The notes beneath the pieces were generated by a model. The model saw nothing but the letters and a program-made list of their open reading frames with translations, had not been told where the DNA came from and made no database searches. This document shows positions 6,850 to 51,005 of a DNA stretch of 64,000 nt, piece after piece. The translations under genes and the position numbers were made by a program. Origin of the DNA: a virus (Duplodnaviria > Caudoviricetes); the IMG/VR virus record IMGVR_UViG_3300031088_000782, positions 192,001 through 256,000 of that record; one strand, given 5' to 3'. Numbering within the stretch: the stretch's first letter is position 1; the number at the start of each line of letters is the position of its first letter.

Positions 6850-6906
6850 ATTATTTAGAAAAGTTATATAACTTAGGTGTTTTTTATATAATTGGAGAGC
6901 GCTATT

Positions 6907-7963
6907 ATGGCTAAATTTCATGTTAACCCTGAAAGCGGAGAGCCGGGAGACTGCGCCGCTAATAAAGGCAAATGTCCATTCGGAGGAGAAAATGGATTAT
7001 CAAATCATTTTGAAACACATGAAGAAGCAGAAGCAGCTGGGCAAAAAATTTTACAGACTAAATATAGAAAAATAAATTCATTCAAGAAAGAACAAATTTA
7101 TCATCAATTGACAATAAATGATTTAAAAACTAATCAATGGTTTCAACTGCTCCCCAGAAAAAACGCTGAACAAGTTTTCAACATGCTCAAAGCCAACACA
7201 AATGAACAAGATGCAAATTTCATTCGATCAACAGCAGGCATAAAAAACAGTGATGCAAGAACACTTCGAGGAATAATTCAACAATGACTCAAAGAAAGAA
7301 TTCAAGAAAATCCTGCCGAATGGAAAGAAGGGCAAAAAATAGCAAGCAATCTTACAGGAGCAGAAAATAACCCTAAAAGAAAAGCCTACATTGAATCCAT
7401 CAACAACAAACACTTTGAGAAAAACGATATGGGCGGATCCAAATTCACTGACCATAGACTCACAAAAGCAGAAGATGCAATATCTCTTGCCATAGCACAA
7501 AGAGGCGGGTTGAAAGGTGATGACAGAAACAAACTTATCACTTCCGGAGCCGATCCTAATGCATTCTTACCACCAGAGTCAGGAGTAAGATATATTCAAA
7601 TTGAGGCAAAAGGAATCGAAGCCACAAAAAGCACAGCTGACATGAAAGATGATGAAATTCTTACAGTGCAAGCTAAAGACCCAAACGATCCAGAATCAAG
7701 CTTAAGCTTTGTAGCAACAGTAAAAGAACAACCAAAAACAAATGTAGGAACAATCATCATCGGGCCAAAAGAAGATGCCAATGGAGAATTGATCAAAGGA
7801 ACAGAAACACTCTGGACAATGCATCCCGGATCACCTACTCGAGGAATACGATCCAATGACATCCGAGAAAAAAGGACTTAATGATGGATCAACAATCACC
7901 GTTAAAGAACTTCGAGAAAAATTTGGAAAAGACATTAAAGCAAACACAAAAATAATTGAATAA
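6907..7963 (+). pseudogene. HCCH-module protein 2, interrupted by an in-frame TGA and a +1 frameshift
   Basis: ORFs 6892..7287 and 7429..7881 share one frame separated only by TGA 7285-7287; removing one A from the A6 run near 7868-7873 extends the protein to ...IREKGLNDGSTITVKELREKFGKDIKANTKIIE* ending at 7963. Confidence 0.7.
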
Positions 7964-9971: not shown

Positions 9972-10049
9972 AATGAATCCTAACTAACTTATTTATATAT
10001 TGTTTACTACTATTATTATAACAATTTTAAAGGAAAGAAAGCATTAATT

Positions 10050-10169
10050 ATGAAAATAAAATCAATAAAAGAAATTGCTCCTGAACCTGCAAGATGTATT
10101 GAAGTCGATTCACCTGACCGACTTTTTGCTGCCGGAGGAGAATTTGGGAATGCTTTCGTAACTCACAAT
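10050..10169 (+). mobile_element. Intein C-fragment (blocks F and G), class-3 type
   Basis: Block F Cys (ARCIEV), block G Thr-His-Asn, +1 Ser; own ATG and AAGGAAAG RBS. Confidence 0.85.
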
Positions 10170-11198
10170 TCTGTTGTTCAAAGAAACATCATTTTCGGTG
10201 CTATTATGAGGCCGGAGAGTTGGCGCTTCCTTGGGATAGACCTGAAAAAAGTTGAACTTTCTTCCTTTCGCGCTTACTCAAATGTTGTTCTAGGTATTGC
10301 AACAGAAATCGAAGATGCGCTAACTGTTTTGCGTTTTGCTCAACAAACAATGATGAAACGTTATGCAGAGATGGAACAACTTGGAGTAAATAACTTTTTG
10401 GATCTTCCAGAAAAAGGACAAGCTTTATTGGTAATGGTTGACGAGGCTGGTGAGCTTCTTTCTCCATCGGGTGTGAAATCAGAAGAAGCTAAGGCTGAAG
10501 ATGAGCTTAAAGGCGAGGCAGCTATGATTATTGGCTCGGTAGCGCGTTTGGGAAGAGCGGCGGGAGTTCATCTTGTAATTGCCACTCAGAGGCCGGACGC
10601 CAAGATAATATCGGGCGAAACTAAGGCTAACCTTGGTGTTCGAATTAACTGTGGGCGAACAGATTCCAACGCTTCGTCAATGATTTTGGGAACTGGTGAG
10701 GGAACAAGAGTAAAGGCTAATCCTCGCGGTCGTTTATATTTGAGAATCTATGGTAGTGGTAATCATGGGCAAGGATTTTTTGCTGACCAGTCTTGGATTG
10801 ACGAATATTTGGCAAGTAAGGGATTGAACCCTGATGGGACAGAAATCAACAGTGGAAAGAAGTCTCGTTTGGCTAATGTCACAGATATGTCTCAGTTCGA
10901 AACTGGCGATTTGGATGCTCGTGAGGGCGTAGACAATTCGTCAATTATTGAGCAAATCAGAGACGAAGAGAGCGATGAGAGTTTCAATAATGTCATGAGT
11001 CAAATTGATGGAGACGAGGAAGAGGACGATGATTGGGGATTCGATGATTCTGATGATACTTCTTCAACTCAACACGATGACGGAAAACTTGGTCGACCAG
11101 AATTGGGAACAGGAGAGAAAAATCCTGATAAATTTAAGAGACCAGAAGAGTCATGGGATCTAGATCTGGAAAGTTTGATTGAAGAAAACAACGAGTAA
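10050..11198 (+). CDS. Split-intein C-fragment fused to the C-terminal half of an FtsK/SpoIIIE-type (TcpA-like) ATPase
   Basis: First 40 aa end in ...RCIEVDSPDRLF...FVTHN|S; then IDLKKVEL, Walker B LLVMVDEAGEL, GRAAGVHLVIATQRPD; Walker A absent; acidic tail. Confidence 0.85.
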   Translation: MKIKSIKEIAPEPARCIEVDSPDRLFAAGGEFGNAFVTHNSVVQRNIIFGAIMRPESWRFLGIDLKKVELSSFRAYSNVVLGIATEIEDALTVLRFAQQTMMKRYAEMEQLGVNNFLDLPEKGQALLVMVDEAGELLSPSGVKSEEAKAEDELKGEAAMIIGSVARLGRAAGVHLVIATQRPDAKIISGETKANLGVRINCGRTDSNASSMILGTGEGTRVKANPRGRLYLRIYGSGNHGQGFFADQSWIDEYLASKGLNPDGTEINSGKKSRLANVTDMSQFETGDLDAREGVDNSSIIEQIRDEESDESFNNVMSQIDGDEEEDDDWGFDDSDDTSSTQHDDGKLGRPELGTGEKNPDKFKRPEESWDLDLESLIEENNE

Positions 11199-13366: not shown

Positions 13367-14317
13367 ATGAATTTTGATTATTTTGATAAATCTTTGGGTT
13401 GTTTTCGTGGGTTGGCTGTCGGTGATGCACTGGGAGCCCCCGTAGAGTTTTCTCAGCGTGGTTCTTTTGTTCCTGTCACAAGTTATCGACCTTCTACTTT
13501 TCACGGCTTAAATGCGGGAGAATGGACTGATGATACTATTATGGCTCTTTGTTTGGCCGAGTCGATGATTGAGAGTAACGGATATGATTCTTTTTCAGTA
13601 ATGTCTTCTTATGTGAAATGGTACAAAGAAGGATATAATTCTCCCAAAGGAACTTGTTTTGACATTGGGAATCAAACAAGCACTGCTTTGGATATTTTCA
13701 TTGATTCACCTTTTTTAGATAAAAGTTCACAAACTTCTTCAGCAGGAAATGGAACAATTATGAGATTAGCTCCTGCATCTATTGTGTCTTTAAATTTGTC
13801 GGATGAAGATTCTAAAAAACTTTTTACTGTGAGTGCTTTGGATACACACAACAACAGTGAGACGATTGAGTCGACTATTCTTTTTGGGTTTATCCTCAAG
13901 GGGTTATTGAGCGGGAAAGATAAAAATGAATCTTTTGATTATGCAGTAGACTTGACAAATAACTATAATAATGTTGCAGACAATGTTCTTTCTGTAACTG
14001 ATGATACTGTTGGTAACAGTGGATATGTTGTTGTTTCTTTGGCTGCTGCTTGGTGGGCTTTCTCTACGACTGATAGCTTTAAAGATGCTGTTTTGAAGGC
14101 GGTGAATCTTGGCGGTGACGCTGACACAATTGCAGCTATTACAGGGCAATTGGCAGGATCTTTCTATGGAGATTCAGGCATTGATGAAATACTTAAATTA
14201 GGGCTTTATCAAACTGAACGTTTTGAACGATTAGCGAAATCTTTGTTGGAAGTAGAGCATGGTGTTATCAGGACAAGATACGAAAACGATACAGTAATTG
14301 CTGATAATTTTTTATAA
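13367..14317 (+). CDS. ADP-ribosylglycohydrolase (DraG/ARH family)
   Basis: GLAVGDALG, WTDDT, GNGTIMR, NLGGDADTIAAITGQLAG. Confidence 0.92.
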   Translation: MNFDYFDKSLGCFRGLAVGDALGAPVEFSQRGSFVPVTSYRPSTFHGLNAGEWTDDTIMALCLAESMIESNGYDSFSVMSSYVKWYKEGYNSPKGTCFDIGNQTSTALDIFIDSPFLDKSSQTSSAGNGTIMRLAPASIVSLNLSDEDSKKLFTVSALDTHNNSETIESTILFGFILKGLLSGKDKNESFDYAVDLTNNYNNVADNVLSVTDDTVGNSGYVVVSLAAAWWAFSTTDSFKDAVLKAVNLGGDADTIAAITGQLAGSFYGDSGIDEILKLGLYQTERFERLAKSLLEVEHGVIRTRYENDTVIADNFL

Positions 14318-14432: not shown

Positions 14433-15359
14433 ATGAAAACAATTTCTAAGGAAGCATATATGGCTGAAAATAATGTTGATGAGAGTAAAAATCCTAAACC
14501 TGCAAAAGTGGTGGTTGTTGTCAAAAATTATCCAATGAGAAATAGGGTTGCTTCTATTTTCTCTTTGCCGTTTTTAGTTTTAGCTTCTGCTATTTTTTCT
14601 GTTCCGCTTTTGCTTTTTGGAAAATTGGGGCTTTCTGCTGCTTTGACTTTGACTGTCGTATCTGAGATTATTATTGTTATTTTGGCATTGAATTATATTG
14701 ATCAATTGAAAAATTGGGCAAAAAAATTACGGTTAAATAATTTCAAATGGAGTAATGTGTTTATCGGCATTGGGTTTGGCTCTGTCATGTATTTCTTGCT
14801 TCAAGGGTTGGCAATAGGCATGAACTATTTGGGGATGCCTATCGTGTCGAGTGATACAAGTGTTGCTATTACTTCTTCAACTGGTTTGTCTTATGTTATT
14901 GCTTCCTTTATTCTTGCTCCTTTCATAGTTCCATTTGTTGAGGAGTTGTTTTTCAGAGGGTATGTTCTTGGGTTCTTTTATGACTCTTTCGAAGTTAAAG
15001 AAAAAATGCTTAAAGAATCTAAGAAAAAAATAAAAAATATTAAAAAACAAGAAAAAGATGACAGCGAAAAATTCGATGAAGAATCTAATTCTATCGTTTT
15101 TACTGAGGAAGAATTGAAAAATAAGAGCAGAAAAAATTGGGCTGTGTTTTGGTCTTTGTTGGTTTCTTCAATTGTTTTCAGCTTAGCTCATTTTCAGGGT
15201 TTATCAGATTCGACAGATATTTTCTTGTTGATTTGGATTGCGTTTATGGCATGTGTTAATGGTATTCTGTTTTTGAAAACGAAAAGTATTTACACATCTT
15301 TCTTTTTGCATATGACTTATAATGGATTGACTCTTCTTGTCCCCCTTCTTCTTGGCTAA
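14433..15359 (+). CDS. CPBP (CAAX protease/Abi) intramembrane metalloprotease
   Basis: Multiple TM helices, EELFFRG, FSLAHF, HMTYN. Confidence 0.88.
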   Translation: MKTISKEAYMAENNVDESKNPKPAKVVVVVKNYPMRNRVASIFSLPFLVLASAIFSVPLLLFGKLGLSAALTLTVVSEIIIVILALNYIDQLKNWAKKLRLNNFKWSNVFIGIGFGSVMYFLLQGLAIGMNYLGMPIVSSDTSVAITSSTGLSYVIASFILAPFIVPFVEELFFRGYVLGFFYDSFEVKEKMLKESKKKIKNIKKQEKDDSEKFDEESNSIVFTEEELKNKSRKNWAVFWSLLVSSIVFSLAHFQGLSDSTDIFLLIWIAFMACVNGILFLKTKSIYTSFFLHMTYNGLTLLVPLLLG

Positions 15360-47795: not shown

Positions 47796-50700
47796 ATGGT
47801 AGAATTCACCAATCCTTTCAGCAATAAGAAAAAGAACAAAGTCAATACCGAAGATAATCTTGTCATAGATTCAAGTATAGAGTCATTAGCAGATAATCCT
47901 CCAGCAGAAAACAATAATGAAATAACACTTGAAAATGTAGCTGAAGAGGCACTTAAAGATAACACTCCCCTTTCTCAGCCTATTGTTAATCAAAGTCAAA
48001 CAAGTAATTTACCCAGGCTTCCTAAAATAGCTCCTGCCGATGACAGAGCTTTCGCTGAACTTTTCGAAGAAGGCGACAATGAAGAGAGTGAATTATATAG
48101 GGCAAAACAAGAGACCAATTTTGGTGAATCTTACAAAAAAGAAGTTGAAGATAAGATTATCGAACTTATTGAACGAAACATCAATGATTTAAAAAAGAAA
48201 TACCCAACAGGCGGTATCAAAGCTTCACGTTATATTACAACCGAAGTTCTCATTATGGCACCAGCAGGATATTTTGACAAATATTTGAATGATGTCTCAA
48301 GAGGAGTCGATTATGTGAGGAATAAACTTGCTGATGCTGACAAATCCGACATGATTAGGACAGCACAAGATAATCCTACTGATGATGCACTTCAAGACAG
48401 GGCTTTCTTTCTTGTTCACAGTTTAGCTTCAGAATTTATGAAAAATTCGATGTGGAGAGAAACCAATAGGAGCATTGTTGTTTCGTTTATCTGTAACGAA
48501 ATAGTAGGATTTGGAAGAATCGATCCTTTGTGGAGAGATAGAAGTATTGATGAAATCATGTGTAATGGACCAAAAGACATTCAAATCGAAATTCGTGGTG
48601 AAATTACTAAAGTTCCTGGATGTTACTTCAATAATCAGGCGCATTTGATGGAGTTGATCGACAGACTATATGGTGCAATCGGAAAAACAGTAAGCATGAC
48701 AACAGCAATGGTGAAAGGTAGACTTCACGACAAAAGCCGTATGTATGCTACCCACCCTGTTATCTCTCCAGACGGTCCAAATTTTTCAATTAGAAGACAC
48801 CCAGAGAAGTTTTGGGCACCAAGCGATCTTGTTCAAAGAGGTTCAGCTTCACCCGAAATGATGTCATACATTGGAAATCTCATTTATAAAGGAGCTTCGG
48901 TAGCCATTACAGGAGGCACCCATAGCGGCAAGGAGATGGTGGCTGAAACAAAAGTTCACACCCCTTCTGGAATAACAACAATGGGCGAAATCCAAATAGG
49001 TGACCAAATTTTCGATCATCATGGAAATATAGCTACAGTGACAAATAAATTTCCTCAACCACTTAGACAAGTATACGAAATTTCCTTCAGTAACGGAGAA
49101 AAAAGTTACGTTGGTGCTAACCATAACTGGTTTATCTCTACTCACGAGTCTAGAAAATCCAACAAATACCGCGAATCAAACAAAAAGAATTCCGGCTGGA
49201 CAAGAAAAACTAATTATTCACCAGAAATTATCGACAAAATTGAGAAAAAACTTATAGAAGTTTCAGAAAATGATTATGTTAGTTTTGCAGAAGGTTTTCG
49301 TAATGTTGGATTAAAAACAACAGGATCTAAACACCTTACAAAGCAATTAAAATCTTTAGCAAAAATAAACAGAAAAGTTTTAGCTAAAGATTTCTACAAA
49401 ACACTTCTGGAATACGGAAAGAAAAATAAAAATGATCAGAGGCACAGAAGGTCTCCGTTATTCTCTGTCATGACTACTGAAGAAATGATGAATGTTGGTC
49501 TTTTGCATAAATCTTCGGTTGATGGTCACAAAAGATACAATTTTCATATTCCTGTTCTTGAAAATGCTGTTGAATATGATAATGGTAAATCACCTGAAGA
49601 TCTGCCTATTCATCCTTATTTGTTCGGACTGTGGTTAGGAGACGGAAGCTCAAGCAAGGCTGTTTTGACCGGAGCAGCTGATGATGTTGAATTCTATAAC
49701 AACTATTTTAACTACGCCCCTGAAACAAAAATATTCAAAACTATAGGAAAATCAGATAGTAACTGGAAGATTACTGTCCTCAATTTCAGAAACAATCTTC
49801 TTGAACTGGGTGTTGTCCAAAAAACAACCGCTGAAGGCTCTAAAAAGCATATCCCCGATATCTACAAGTATGCTAGTGTAGAGTCCCGTAGAATGCTCAT
49901 TGCTGGTCTTATAGATAGTGATGGTTGGGCTAACACAAGATGCCCCGGATGGATTTTCACCAATACTAACGAAACTCTTGTTAAAGATTATATTCAAGTT
50001 GCATCATCTTTGGCTTACAAGGTTTCACGAAGTAAGGATAAGCAAAAATATTTTGATTATAAGGGCGAGAAAAAAGCTGGAAAAACTTCATGGGATGTTT
50101 CTATTGTTACTCATGATTCTTTAGCATATCTCCCAAGAAAAATCGAAGCACATAAGAAAATGCTTAAACAATTCCCGGAGAGTTTGGGAAGACAAGATGA
50201 CATTTCTATTGTTGACATTAAACCTGTTGAGGGCAGAATTGAAAACATGGTATGTATTACTGTTGACTCTCCTGACTCTACCTACATGATAGAGAACAGC
50301 TTTATCACCACTCACAACACTTCTTTGTTAAACGCTTTGACAGGCTTTTATAAGCCAAGAGTAAGAATTTTAACACTTGAAGATAACATTGAAATGAAAC
50401 CCAACCCTAAGAAATATTTAGCTGCTGCAATGGAATGTCGCGCTCCTGCTGTTGACAGACCAAGCGATAAAGGGGTTTCTATGAGAGATTTAGTGAAGGG
50501 ATCTTTGCAGTTAAGACCAGATGCTATTATCGTAGGTGAGGTAACTGATGATGCAGCCTTCGATCTTTGTCAAGCATTGAATACAGGTCATGCAGGAATG
50601 TCAACAATTCACGCTAACAGCTCTATAGAAGCTATCCCGCGTATTGCATCTTTGATTGCGCAGGGTGGTTTAGTCACATCAGAAGGAAGCTTAGAGCTTA

Positions 50701-51005
50701 TTTCTTCCGCTTTTGATATCGTTGTCTCTGTTAAGCACTTCCCTCTTGATGGATCCCGCCGAATTGTCTCTGTTGATGAAGTAGGATCAACACCAGTAGA
50801 AATAAACGGAAGACTCACACTACCTGTTTATCCATTGTGGAAGTTCATTGATGAAGGACTAAATGCGGAAGGAAAAGTCATCGGCCATTGGGAGCAGGTA
50901 GGCGATATTAGTAAAGAACGACAAGAACGAAAACTTCTCAACATTGAAGAAAGCTTAAATTGGGAAGATTTGAAAGAACTCAGCAGCATCCCTGGACAGG
51001 AGTAA
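47796..51005 (+). CDS. tadA: Tad assembly ATPase TadA/CpaF containing an intein
   Basis: EIMCNG, DGPNFSIRR, Walker A GGTHSGK|T split by the intein, EDNIE, LRPDAIIVGEV, NTGH...STIHAN. Confidence 0.93.
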   Translation: MVEFTNPFSNKKKNKVNTEDNLVIDSSIESLADNPPAENNNEITLENVAEEALKDNTPLSQPIVNQSQTSNLPRLPKIAPADDRAFAELFEEGDNEESELYRAKQETNFGESYKKEVEDKIIELIERNINDLKKKYPTGGIKASRYITTEVLIMAPAGYFDKYLNDVSRGVDYVRNKLADADKSDMIRTAQDNPTDDALQDRAFFLVHSLASEFMKNSMWRETNRSIVVSFICNEIVGFGRIDPLWRDRSIDEIMCNGPKDIQIEIRGEITKVPGCYFNNQAHLMELIDRLYGAIGKTVSMTTAMVKGRLHDKSRMYATHPVISPDGPNFSIRRHPEKFWAPSDLVQRGSASPEMMSYIGNLIYKGASVAITGGTHSGKEMVAETKVHTPSGITTMGEIQIGDQIFDHHGNIATVTNKFPQPLRQVYEISFSNGEKSYVGANHNWFISTHESRKSNKYRESNKKNSGWTRKTNYSPEIIDKIEKKLIEVSENDYVSFAEGFRNVGLKTTGSKHLTKQLKSLAKINRKVLAKDFYKTLLEYGKKNKNDQRHRRSPLFSVMTTEEMMNVGLLHKSSVDGHKRYNFHIPVLENAVEYDNGKSPEDLPIHPYLFGLWLGDGSSSKAVLTGAADDVEFYNNYFNYAPETKIFKTIGKSDSNWKITVLNFRNNLLELGVVQKTTAEGSKKHIPDIYKYASVESRRMLIAGLIDSDGWANTRCPGWIFTNTNETLVKDYIQVASSLAYKVSRSKDKQKYFDYKGEKKAGKTSWDVSIVTHDSLAYLPRKIEAHKKMLKQFPESLGRQDDISIVDIKPVEGRIENMVCITVDSPDSTYMIENSFITTHNTSLLNALTGFYKPRVRILTLEDNIEMKPNPKKYLAAAMECRAPAVDRPSDKGVSMRDLVKGSLQLRPDAIIVGEVTDDAAFDLCQALNTGHAGMSTIHANSSIEAIPRIASLIAQGGLVTSEGSLELISSAFDIVVSVKHFPLDGSRRIVSVDEVGSTPVEINGRLTLPVYPLWKFIDEGLNAEGKVIGHWEQVGDISKERQERKLLNIEESLNWEDLKELSSIPGQE
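48933..50318 (+). mobile_element. 462-aa class-3-type intein with a LAGLIDADG endonuclease, inserted in the TadA Walker A
   Basis: Block A EMVAETKVHTPSG; block B ANHNW; LAGLIDADG motifs YLFGLWLGDG and LIAGLIDSDG; block F MVCITV; block G ITTHN|T. Confidence 0.9.

Follow-up and report, generated by a model that had tools for sequence, protein, structure and literature searches.

The 64,000-nucleotide window analysed here comprises bases 192001–256000 of the 309,534-bp IMG/VR virus record IMGVR_UViG_3300031088_000782 (Duplodnaviria; Caudoviricetes; 35% G+C) and contains a gene encoding a 40-residue C-terminal intein fragment (IntC, the C-piece) fused to the core of an FtsK/SpoIIIE-like ATPase (Table 1). 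Two further genes of the record, located outside the window by genome-wide searches with intein and FtsK models and by reading of open reading frames, encode the N-half of the ATPase, which ends in a short intein tail, and a free-standing middle piece of the intein. We infer from the sequences that the three products probably associate and trans-splice as a natural three-piece class-3 split intein, which would assemble a membrane-anchored FtsK/SpoIIIE-like ATPase encoded by this jumbo phage.

The reading frame of the C-half gene is closed by an in-frame stop codon at window positions 9981–9983, 22 codons 5′ of its ATG, and there is therefore no upstream extension and no hidden contiguous intein. 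The position of the Shine-Dalgarno-like site AAGGAAAG indicates that the C-fragment is translated from its own start. A promoter-like match at positions 9992–10019 was no better than those obtained from shuffled sequences. The Pfam family FtsK_SpoIIIE (PF01580) matches the C-half with an E-value of 3.7e-13 (49.9 bits against a cut-off of 24), and the match begins at residue 41, which corresponds to position 53 of the 221-position profile, just past the Walker A motif. The C-extein also matches the FtsK/SpoIIIE-like family phrog_1358 (E 2e-34). It contains the motifs VDEAGEL, LGRAAGVH, and ATQRP, and it includes the arginine-finger region and an acidic C-terminal tail; the Walker A motif GGGTGGGK is located on the N-half. 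The PF01580 match together with Walker A, Walker B, and the R-A-A-G-[IV]-H and A-T-Q-R-P motifs indicates an FtsK/SpoIIIE P-loop ATPase. Homologs without an intein have the sequence GSGK/SV..N at the junction (slash), and the insertion point is therefore between the P-loop lysine and serine. The best sequence matches of IntC residues 2–30 in the PDB are the class-3 DnaB inteins 6rix (E 0.003, residues 110–138) and 6bs8 (E 0.03).

The N-half contains transmembrane segments and a conserved N-terminal domain, and its P-loop lies near the C-terminal end. The GGGK sequence is followed by fifteen intein residues, S-L-S-V-D-T-L-V-E-I-I-N-K-E-Q, and a stop codon; the first eleven constitute block A, and four more precede the stop. 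The middle piece starts with K-K-F-G-D-L-E-V-G-D-V-I-L-G, which is the sequence expected after block A in an intein. It continues with block B, S-G-N-H-L-W, in which His is position B10 and Trp position B12, an insert of about 110 residues, and the last strands of the intein N-lobe (I-V-G-R-I-M-N-T-E-Q-M ... I-P). The Pfam families Hint and Intein_splicing match the middle piece weakly, and its residues 6–58 correspond to residues 17–69 of 6rix (MchDnaB-1, E 2.6e-5). Since IntC covers residues 110–138 of the same structure, approximately residues 1–11 remain for the N-tail. The N-tail, middle piece, and IntC, taken in this order, align with blocks A, B, F, and G of the contiguous class-3 DnaB intein encoded in the same genome. 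The order of the blocks and their insertion at the Walker A GK/S site identify the pieces as an intein (HINT) domain; the three tile one such domain, and the N-tail and IntC cannot make up the fold without the middle piece. Pfam and PHROG contain no family specific to the N-tail or to the middle piece, and short intein fragments slip past standard annotation.

An earlier note on this DNA had described an orphan, naturally split class-3 intein in an FtsK-like ATPase cut at Walker A. The 40-residue C-fragment with Cys16, T-H-N, and Ser +1 fused to post-Walker-A ATPase sequence was confirmed by the start of the PF01580 match and by homologs, and the cut at Walker A agrees with the GK/S junction of the intein-less homologs. 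The class-3 assignment was upheld by the Trp/Cys/Thr triplet carried on separate genes, and both endonuclease genes said to flank the C-half gene as paralogs match phrog_3339 (E ~1e-62). The N-half is indeed missing from the window, as the partners were located outside the 64 kb in genome-wide searches for FtsK and intein-N sequences, and the proposed long-range assembly with a distant partner fits the N-half gene 114 kb upstream. However, the fragment is not an orphan, because the N-half is present in the same genome. The partner was expected to end in Walker A GK followed by intein blocks A and B; it ends in GK and block A, whereas block B with its Trp lies on the separate middle-piece gene. 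The intein is thus naturally split, but into three pieces rather than two, and the N-half has only about eleven conserved intein residues. The suggested role as a transfer or coupling protein has no basis, since the replicon is a jumbo phage and not a plasmid or conjugative element.

The same anatomy is conserved in homologs. Searches with the N-half found 186 homologs, of which 120 were listed (46–96% identical), and in 119 of the 120 the GK is followed by the eleven residues of block A, a short variable tail, and a stop codon. The consensus of these 119 tails after G-x-G-K is [S 81 / A 38]-L-[S/A]-x-[D/N/E]-T(114)-x-[V/I](117)-x-V-hydrophobic, and position 7 is a proline in 25 N-halves, as in DnaB class-3 inteins. 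The tails have a median length of 17 residues, and all positions past residue 11 are variable; a variable tail directly after the conserved block A shows selection on eleven intein residues. None of the 120 listed homologs carries a full N-intein. The C-half has 712 homologs at E≤1e-10, and a C-fragment of about 40 residues opens every one of the 120 listed that has a complete N-terminus. The block F cysteine (F4) is present in all 111 scored C-halves and [S/T]-H-N-S, with the penultimate His, the Asn, and Ser +1, in 110 of them; Cys16, His39, Asn40, and Ser41 are all invariant in the C-half alignment A2. The middle-piece family forms 94 clusters (50% identity) at E≤1e-10. With few exceptions they are free-standing proteins of 200–250 residues matched over their full length, with an invariant block B His and with Trp in 58 of 80. 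Fused forms, either of the middle piece with the C-half or of the N-half with a full N-intein, were absent from the listed matches (120 N-half, 120 C-half, and 150 middle-piece). The own ATG of the C-half gene, its Shine-Dalgarno-like site and closed frame, the stop codon that follows the N-tail in all but one of 120 homologs, and the stand-alone middle-piece family together establish a natural split. Among deposited phages there is no close relative of the ATPase; the best matches are intein-less FtsK-like proteins of Bacillus phages with about 31% identity, and alignments starting at query residue 18 were rejected as spurious extensions across the P-loop. The sole matches of the middle piece to deposited phages are terminase inteins.

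The intein of the studied phage has the class-3 signature Trp B12 (S-G-N-H-L-W), Cys F4 (R-C-I-E-V), and Thr G5 (T-H-N), and position G5 is Thr or Ser in the family. The first intein residue is Ser in the studied phage and Ala in 38 of 119 N-halves, which rules out a class-1 first step for the members with Ala. The family as a whole would therefore not depend on residue 1, and most likely uses the class-3 route. The splicing mechanism can be proposed as follows. The N-piece would provide the scissile Lys–Ser1 bond, the middle piece the block B His and Trp, and the C-piece Cys F4, the penultimate His, the Asn, and Ser +1. After the three chains fold jointly into one HINT domain, Cys16 of the C-piece would attack the Lys–Ser1 bond of the N-piece and form a block-F branched thioester. 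The N-extein would then move to Ser +1, and cyclization of Asn40 and an O–N shift would produce the intact Walker A sequence GGGTGGGK-SVVQR. In the studied phage, a class-1 mini-intein located 11 residues upstream must also splice out.

All three genes occur together on at least nine contigs, those of the studied phage (G000), its relatives G001, G002, and G004–G007, and the IMG/VR contigs ..._179014 and ..._187329, at 40–75% identity. The N-half, middle-piece, and C-half genes follow each other on one strand in the studied phage (7.9 kb from the N-half to the middle piece and 105.7 kb from there to the C-half), G001 (~0.9 and ~116 kb), G002 (~5.5 and ~94 kb), the two IMG/VR contigs (~5 and ~84 kb), and G007 (~5 and ~74 kb); the distance from the middle piece to the C-half is thus 74–116 kb in contigs with this order. 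The order differs in G004, where the middle piece is ~1 kb from the N-half and the C-half is 52 kb upstream of it. In every relative searched over its whole record, the middle-piece gene is located about 1–8 kb downstream of the N-half gene. The co-occurrence across contigs rules out misassembly and recent decay. G004 also has two tandem degenerate copies of the C-half ATPase without the C-fragment just upstream of the intact gene (L050 2151–3288). The C-half protein of the window is recorded, identical, on a 681,645-bp contig, and homologs are found on contigs of 670–727 kb. The 309.5-kb ‘provirus’ record may have been cut from a much larger megaphage contig, in which case the true genome is larger.

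Several observations weigh against trans-splicing of the three pieces. Trp B12 is substituted in about a quarter of the middle pieces; G001 has Met in its place, and the resulting Met-Cys-Thr variant is active in the AceL NrdHF intein (PMC7891396). A class-1-like first step is conceivable for the studied copy, given its Ser1. Prediction of a complex of the N-tail (35 residues), C-half residues 1–110, and the middle piece had a score of 0.11, the mark being 0.34; the single-sequence model used had a fold confidence below 50, and the score gives no verdict for or against binding. In the lineage of G008, which looks decayed, both the P-loop and the middle piece are missing and the C-half is further broken. 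The insert of the middle piece appears to lack a recognizable fold. The AlphaFold2 model of the middle piece calculated with the family alignment has a pLDDT (predicted local distance difference test) of 93.9, and a Foldseek search of the PDB with the insert found no match at E≤0.001. The only high-probability Foldseek rows of the middle piece are class-3 DnaB inteins over 55 residues, MarR-like rows have a probability of ~0.2 or less, and a wide VIA-align search with the insert reached a Z of 4.0 at best, an uninformative value. The N-tail is short, and it has a non-significant alignment (E 0.7) to the post-P-loop helix of VirB11. Its reading as a normal post-P-loop helix was rejected, because the C-half already supplies this helix (SVVQRNIIFGAIM matches SVVLNGILHTAL of intein-less homologs). 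The helix is also disfavoured by the consensus rich in beta-branched residues, the frequent Pro7, as in block A of class-3 DnaB inteins, and the variability past residue 11.

The conservation and co-occurrence of the three pieces could be explained by association alone, if the intein pieces were high-affinity association modules that do not splice and the ATPase were a non-covalent complex of the N-half, middle piece, and C-half. Split-intein fragments bind tightly (PMC7891396). However, residues needed only for the chemistry are kept at 50–95% divergence: the scored homologs retain Cys F4, the block B His, the penultimate His, and Ser +1 with at most one exception each, and the terminal Asn is present throughout alignment A2. 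Furthermore, the break is inside the P-loop, where a non-covalent insertion of 250 residues would probably hinder nucleotide binding. We therefore consider a purely non-covalent complex unlikely.

It is still less probable that the middle piece is foreign to this intein, belonging to another split gene or having a separate function, and that the N-tail and C-piece act otherwise or are not partners. The genome does contain several other inteins and fractured genes, the extra domain of the middle piece is large, and in one relative (L033) the N-half is directly followed by a gene other than that of the middle piece. Against this stand the inability of the eleven conserved residues of the N-tail and the 40 residues of IntC to make a HINT fold alone, the start of the middle piece where the N-tail stops, and its position 1–8 kb behind the N-half gene in all relatives searched over the whole record. 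In addition, the class-3 DnaB inteins that the middle piece matches best in the PDB are also the best matches of IntC, and the genome-wide intein searches found no other orphan N- or C-fragment. The least credible explanation, to which we give very little weight, is that the pieces are functionless remnants of a once contiguous intein gene that was broken by endonuclease insertion and rearrangement. The endonuclease paralogs at both break points of the studied phage and the state of G008 would fit such decay. Nevertheless, the three reading frames are intact and their motifs kept in hundreds of homologs and on the large contigs described above, and block A is under selection up to the residue at which the variable tail begins. 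The retention of the pieces and their catalytic residues contradicts the dead remnant that the earlier note had offered as an alternative, and the misassembly at 9972–10049 that it had considered is excluded, as is chance, by the same C-fragment start in every complete homolog among the 120 listed.

Table 1 Features of the three-piece intein genes and their surroundings. Coordinates are window positions unless preceded by ‘genome’, which denotes positions in the whole record.
Feature	Coordinates	Strand	Remarks
Homing-endonuclease-like gene, 631 aa	8076..9971	-	Divergent from C-half gene; phrog_3339 E 1.9e-63; Pfam DUF7487
AT-rich intergenic spacer, 78 bp	9972..10049		Between divergent endonuclease gene and C-half gene
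Shine-Dalgarno-like site AAGGAAAG	10030..10037	+	12 nt 5′ of C-half ATG; read from letters
C-half (C-piece) gene, 382 aa	10050-11198	+	Own ATG
IntC (intein C-piece), 40 aa, blocks F and G	10050..10169	+	Aligned to C-terminal part of contiguous class-3 DnaB intein of this genome
Cys16 codon TGT	10095..10097	+	Block F position 4 (motif R-C-I-E-V); putative class-3 branch-point nucleophile
Thr38-His39-Asn40 codons	10161..10169	+	Block G; terminal Asn for predicted succinimide formation
Ser41 codon TCT	10170..10172	+	Putative +1 extein nucleophile; doubles as Ser of Walker A GxxGxGK-S
C-extein, FtsK/SpoIIIE ATPase core	10170..11198	+	From post-P-loop helix via Walker B; Pfam PF01580
Paralogous homing-endonuclease-like gene, 664 aa	11265..13259	+	3′ of C-half gene; phrog_3339 E 1.2e-61; DUF7487
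N-half gene, 474 aa	genome 86429-87853	+	114 kb upstream of C-piece; outside window
Two more phrog_3339 paralogs	genome 87920-88891 and 88972-91239		Directly 3′ of N-half gene
287-aa gene	genome 94904-95767 (L012 10904-11767)		Stop 2 nt before middle-piece ATG
Middle-piece gene, 208-210 aa	genome 95764-96396	+	Likely ATG 95770; free-standing, without extein

Homing-endonuclease-like genes are located at the break points of the studied phage, after the N-half and both before and after the C-half (Table 1); the product of the gene following the C-half also has a weak Mom-like C-terminal domain. A homolog of the endonuclease gene upstream of the C-half occupies the same place in G002 (L015 4121–5854) and is absent from G001, and the gene is therefore a mobile insertion. 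Some or all of the four phrog_3339 genes are missing from relatives, and the endonuclease genes are mobile insertions at both break points. The downstream endonuclease gene is followed by an ADP-ribosylglycohydrolase gene (13367–14317, Pfam E 2.6e-60) and then by a gene for a membrane protein, which resembles a CPBP-type protease by motif alone (14433–15359). In G001, the homologous membrane protein gene is directly 3′ of the C-half, which marks the intervening genes of the studied phage, for the endonuclease and the glycohydrolase, as insertions.

The middle-piece gene is preceded by a gene of 280–356 codons in the studied phage, G001, G004, and L031, the stop of which overlaps or abuts the middle-piece start. 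Its product has an FtsK-like fold without Walker A (Atlas features 0.94–0.96; TM 0.60–0.65 to FtsK/EssC clusters), and the 287-residue protein of the studied phage has neither Walker A nor Walker B. A frameshift fusing this gene to the middle piece was rejected, because the frames overlap by only a few bases, the C-terminus lacks block A, and the protein has an FtsK-like fold without a P-loop. Two paralogs with the N-terminal sequence M-x-K-F-H-V-N-x-E-[ST]-G ... C ... G-x-C-P are encoded upstream of the C-half locus (window 6892–7287) and between the N-half and the middle piece (genome 93253–94521). The pair may be left over from the rearrangement or duplication by which the loci became separated.

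The studied genome contains other inteins. The class-1 mini-intein of the N-half (genome 87350–87772; L012 3350–3772) is contiguous, has 141 residues (C-L-T-G-D-T ... V-Q-V-H-N/C), and is separated from the split junction by the 11-residue extein C-F-I-G-G-G-T-G-G-G-K, so that two inteins bracket the P-loop. An N-half length fitting the mini-intein (at least 460 residues) is found in 18 of the 120 listed homologs, and the others read ...TSPM-[A/V]-F-[I/V]-GGG. A DnaB helicase gene (genome 104925–107225, L013) has a contiguous class-3 intein with an endonuclease domain and the motifs A-L-S-L-D-T, starting with Ala1, H-R-W, V-R-C-I-Q-V-D, and P-T-H-N/T; no other full-length intein of the genome is as closely related to the three-piece intein. 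A Tad/VirB11-type secretion ATPase of 1069 residues (window 47796–51005, plus strand) is interrupted after its Walker A GK by a contiguous class-3 intein that starts with Glu and contains H-N-W in block B, V-C-I-T-V-D in block F, T-T-H-N/T in block G, and a LAGLIDADG endonuclease domain. This brings the number of class-3 inteins at GK/S or GK/T P-loop sites of the genome to three. In the C-half homolog P0153, the ATPase core is also interrupted, behind ...S-G-V-K, by another class-3 intein that is contiguous and includes an endonuclease domain (A-L-A-A-N-T ... H-Y-W ... Y-C-L-R-V ... T-T-H-N/T), and 28 other C-half homologs of at least 480 residues probably have the same or a similar insert. 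With up to three insertion sites, the FtsK-like gene appears to be a hot spot for inteins. Searches with TIGR01445 and PF14890 miss class-3 N-termini and left the Tad and DnaB inteins unreported, and absence in these searches is therefore weak evidence.

The arrangement can be compared with engineered and natural split inteins. The S1 site of the Ssp DnaB intein reportedly lies after residue 11. The natural split points correspond to the S1 and S0 sites of this artificially three-cut intein. Trans-splicing is retained when the Ssp DnaB intein is cut into three at these two sites (Sun, Yang and Liu 2004, Journal of Biological Chemistry, as summarized in PMC11766414), and it is also seen in other engineered three-piece inteins (synthetic Npu DnaE and gp41-1; bioRxiv 10.1101/2023.01.30.526203). 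The engineered systems share with the present one a short block-A N-piece, a free block-B middle piece, and a C-piece of about 40 residues cut at the canonical endonuclease-insertion site, and all three pieces are needed for trans-splicing. The engineered inteins are, however, laboratory constructs from class-1 inteins, whereas the pieces described here are natural genes of class-3 type, with an extra domain of ~110 residues in the middle piece and a C-piece gene ~100 kb away. The same preprint states that splitting into more than two pieces has not been shown in nature, and our full-text literature search found no report of a natural three-piece intein and none after that 2023 preprint.

AceL NrdHF is the first reported naturally split class-3 intein (PMC7891396). 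It shares with the studied intein a phage-like metagenomic origin, the block F cysteine, and a homing-endonuclease gene, and its Met-Cys-Thr motif is the variant found in G001. AceL NrdHF has no obligatory N-terminal nucleophile, and to judge from its Ala1 members the same holds for the family of the studied intein. AceL NrdHF consists of two pieces (98 and 48 residues) encoded by adjacent genes within a ribonucleotide reductase, whereas the studied intein has three pieces spread over 116 kb, interrupts an FtsK-like P-loop, and keeps Trp-Cys-Thr and both catalytic His residues. The contiguous class-3 DnaB inteins MchDnaB-1 (6rix) and Msm DnaBi1 (6bs8) have the same site after the Walker A lysine, Trp-Cys-Thr, and Ser or Thr at +1, but they are single chains in a DnaB helicase. 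The AceL TerL and VidaL inteins, from Mootz-laboratory papers, are said to have natural N-fragments of ~15–25 residues with block A, the rest of the intein reportedly being one C-fragment fused to the C-extein. In the studied intein, this remainder is split again into the free middle piece and the 40-residue C-piece. Fractured genes consist of an N-part, an endonuclease gene, and a C-part side by side on the same strand, and their inteins come in two pieces (Dassa et al. 2009, PMC2677866). The phage context and the free-standing endonuclease genes at the break points are the same here, but there are two breaks, and the C-part, rather than being adjacent, is separated from the N-part by 114 kb and from the middle piece by 106 kb. 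On all but one of the related contigs with the three genes located, the C-part is 74–116 kb away from the others.

We speculate, tentatively, that the middle piece is a diffusible licensing factor and that the system is a natural three-input AND gate for an FtsK-like motor. The inputs would be the membrane-anchored N-half, the middle intein, and the C-half encoded ~100 kb away, possibly in another temporal gene class. The middle intein would be translationally coupled to the Walker-less FtsK-like pseudo-ATPase and carries the conserved 110-residue domain, and the cis-splicing class-1 intein 11 residues upstream would add a fourth condition in the studied phage. This raises the question of whether multi-piece splicing serves phages as a timer for switching on a DNA-motor ATPase.

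The natural inteins known so far are one- or two-gene elements, and three-piece versions are known as engineered tools only. If the three-piece intein is real, it would provide N-, middle, and C-parts optimized by nature for use in three-input protein logic, as well as an N-tag of 11 residues for semisynthetic labelling. Naturally split class-3 inteins would gain a second lineage, much larger than that of AceL NrdHF, and the finding would mean that evolution reached the three-piece state and kept it in a whole clade of huge phages.

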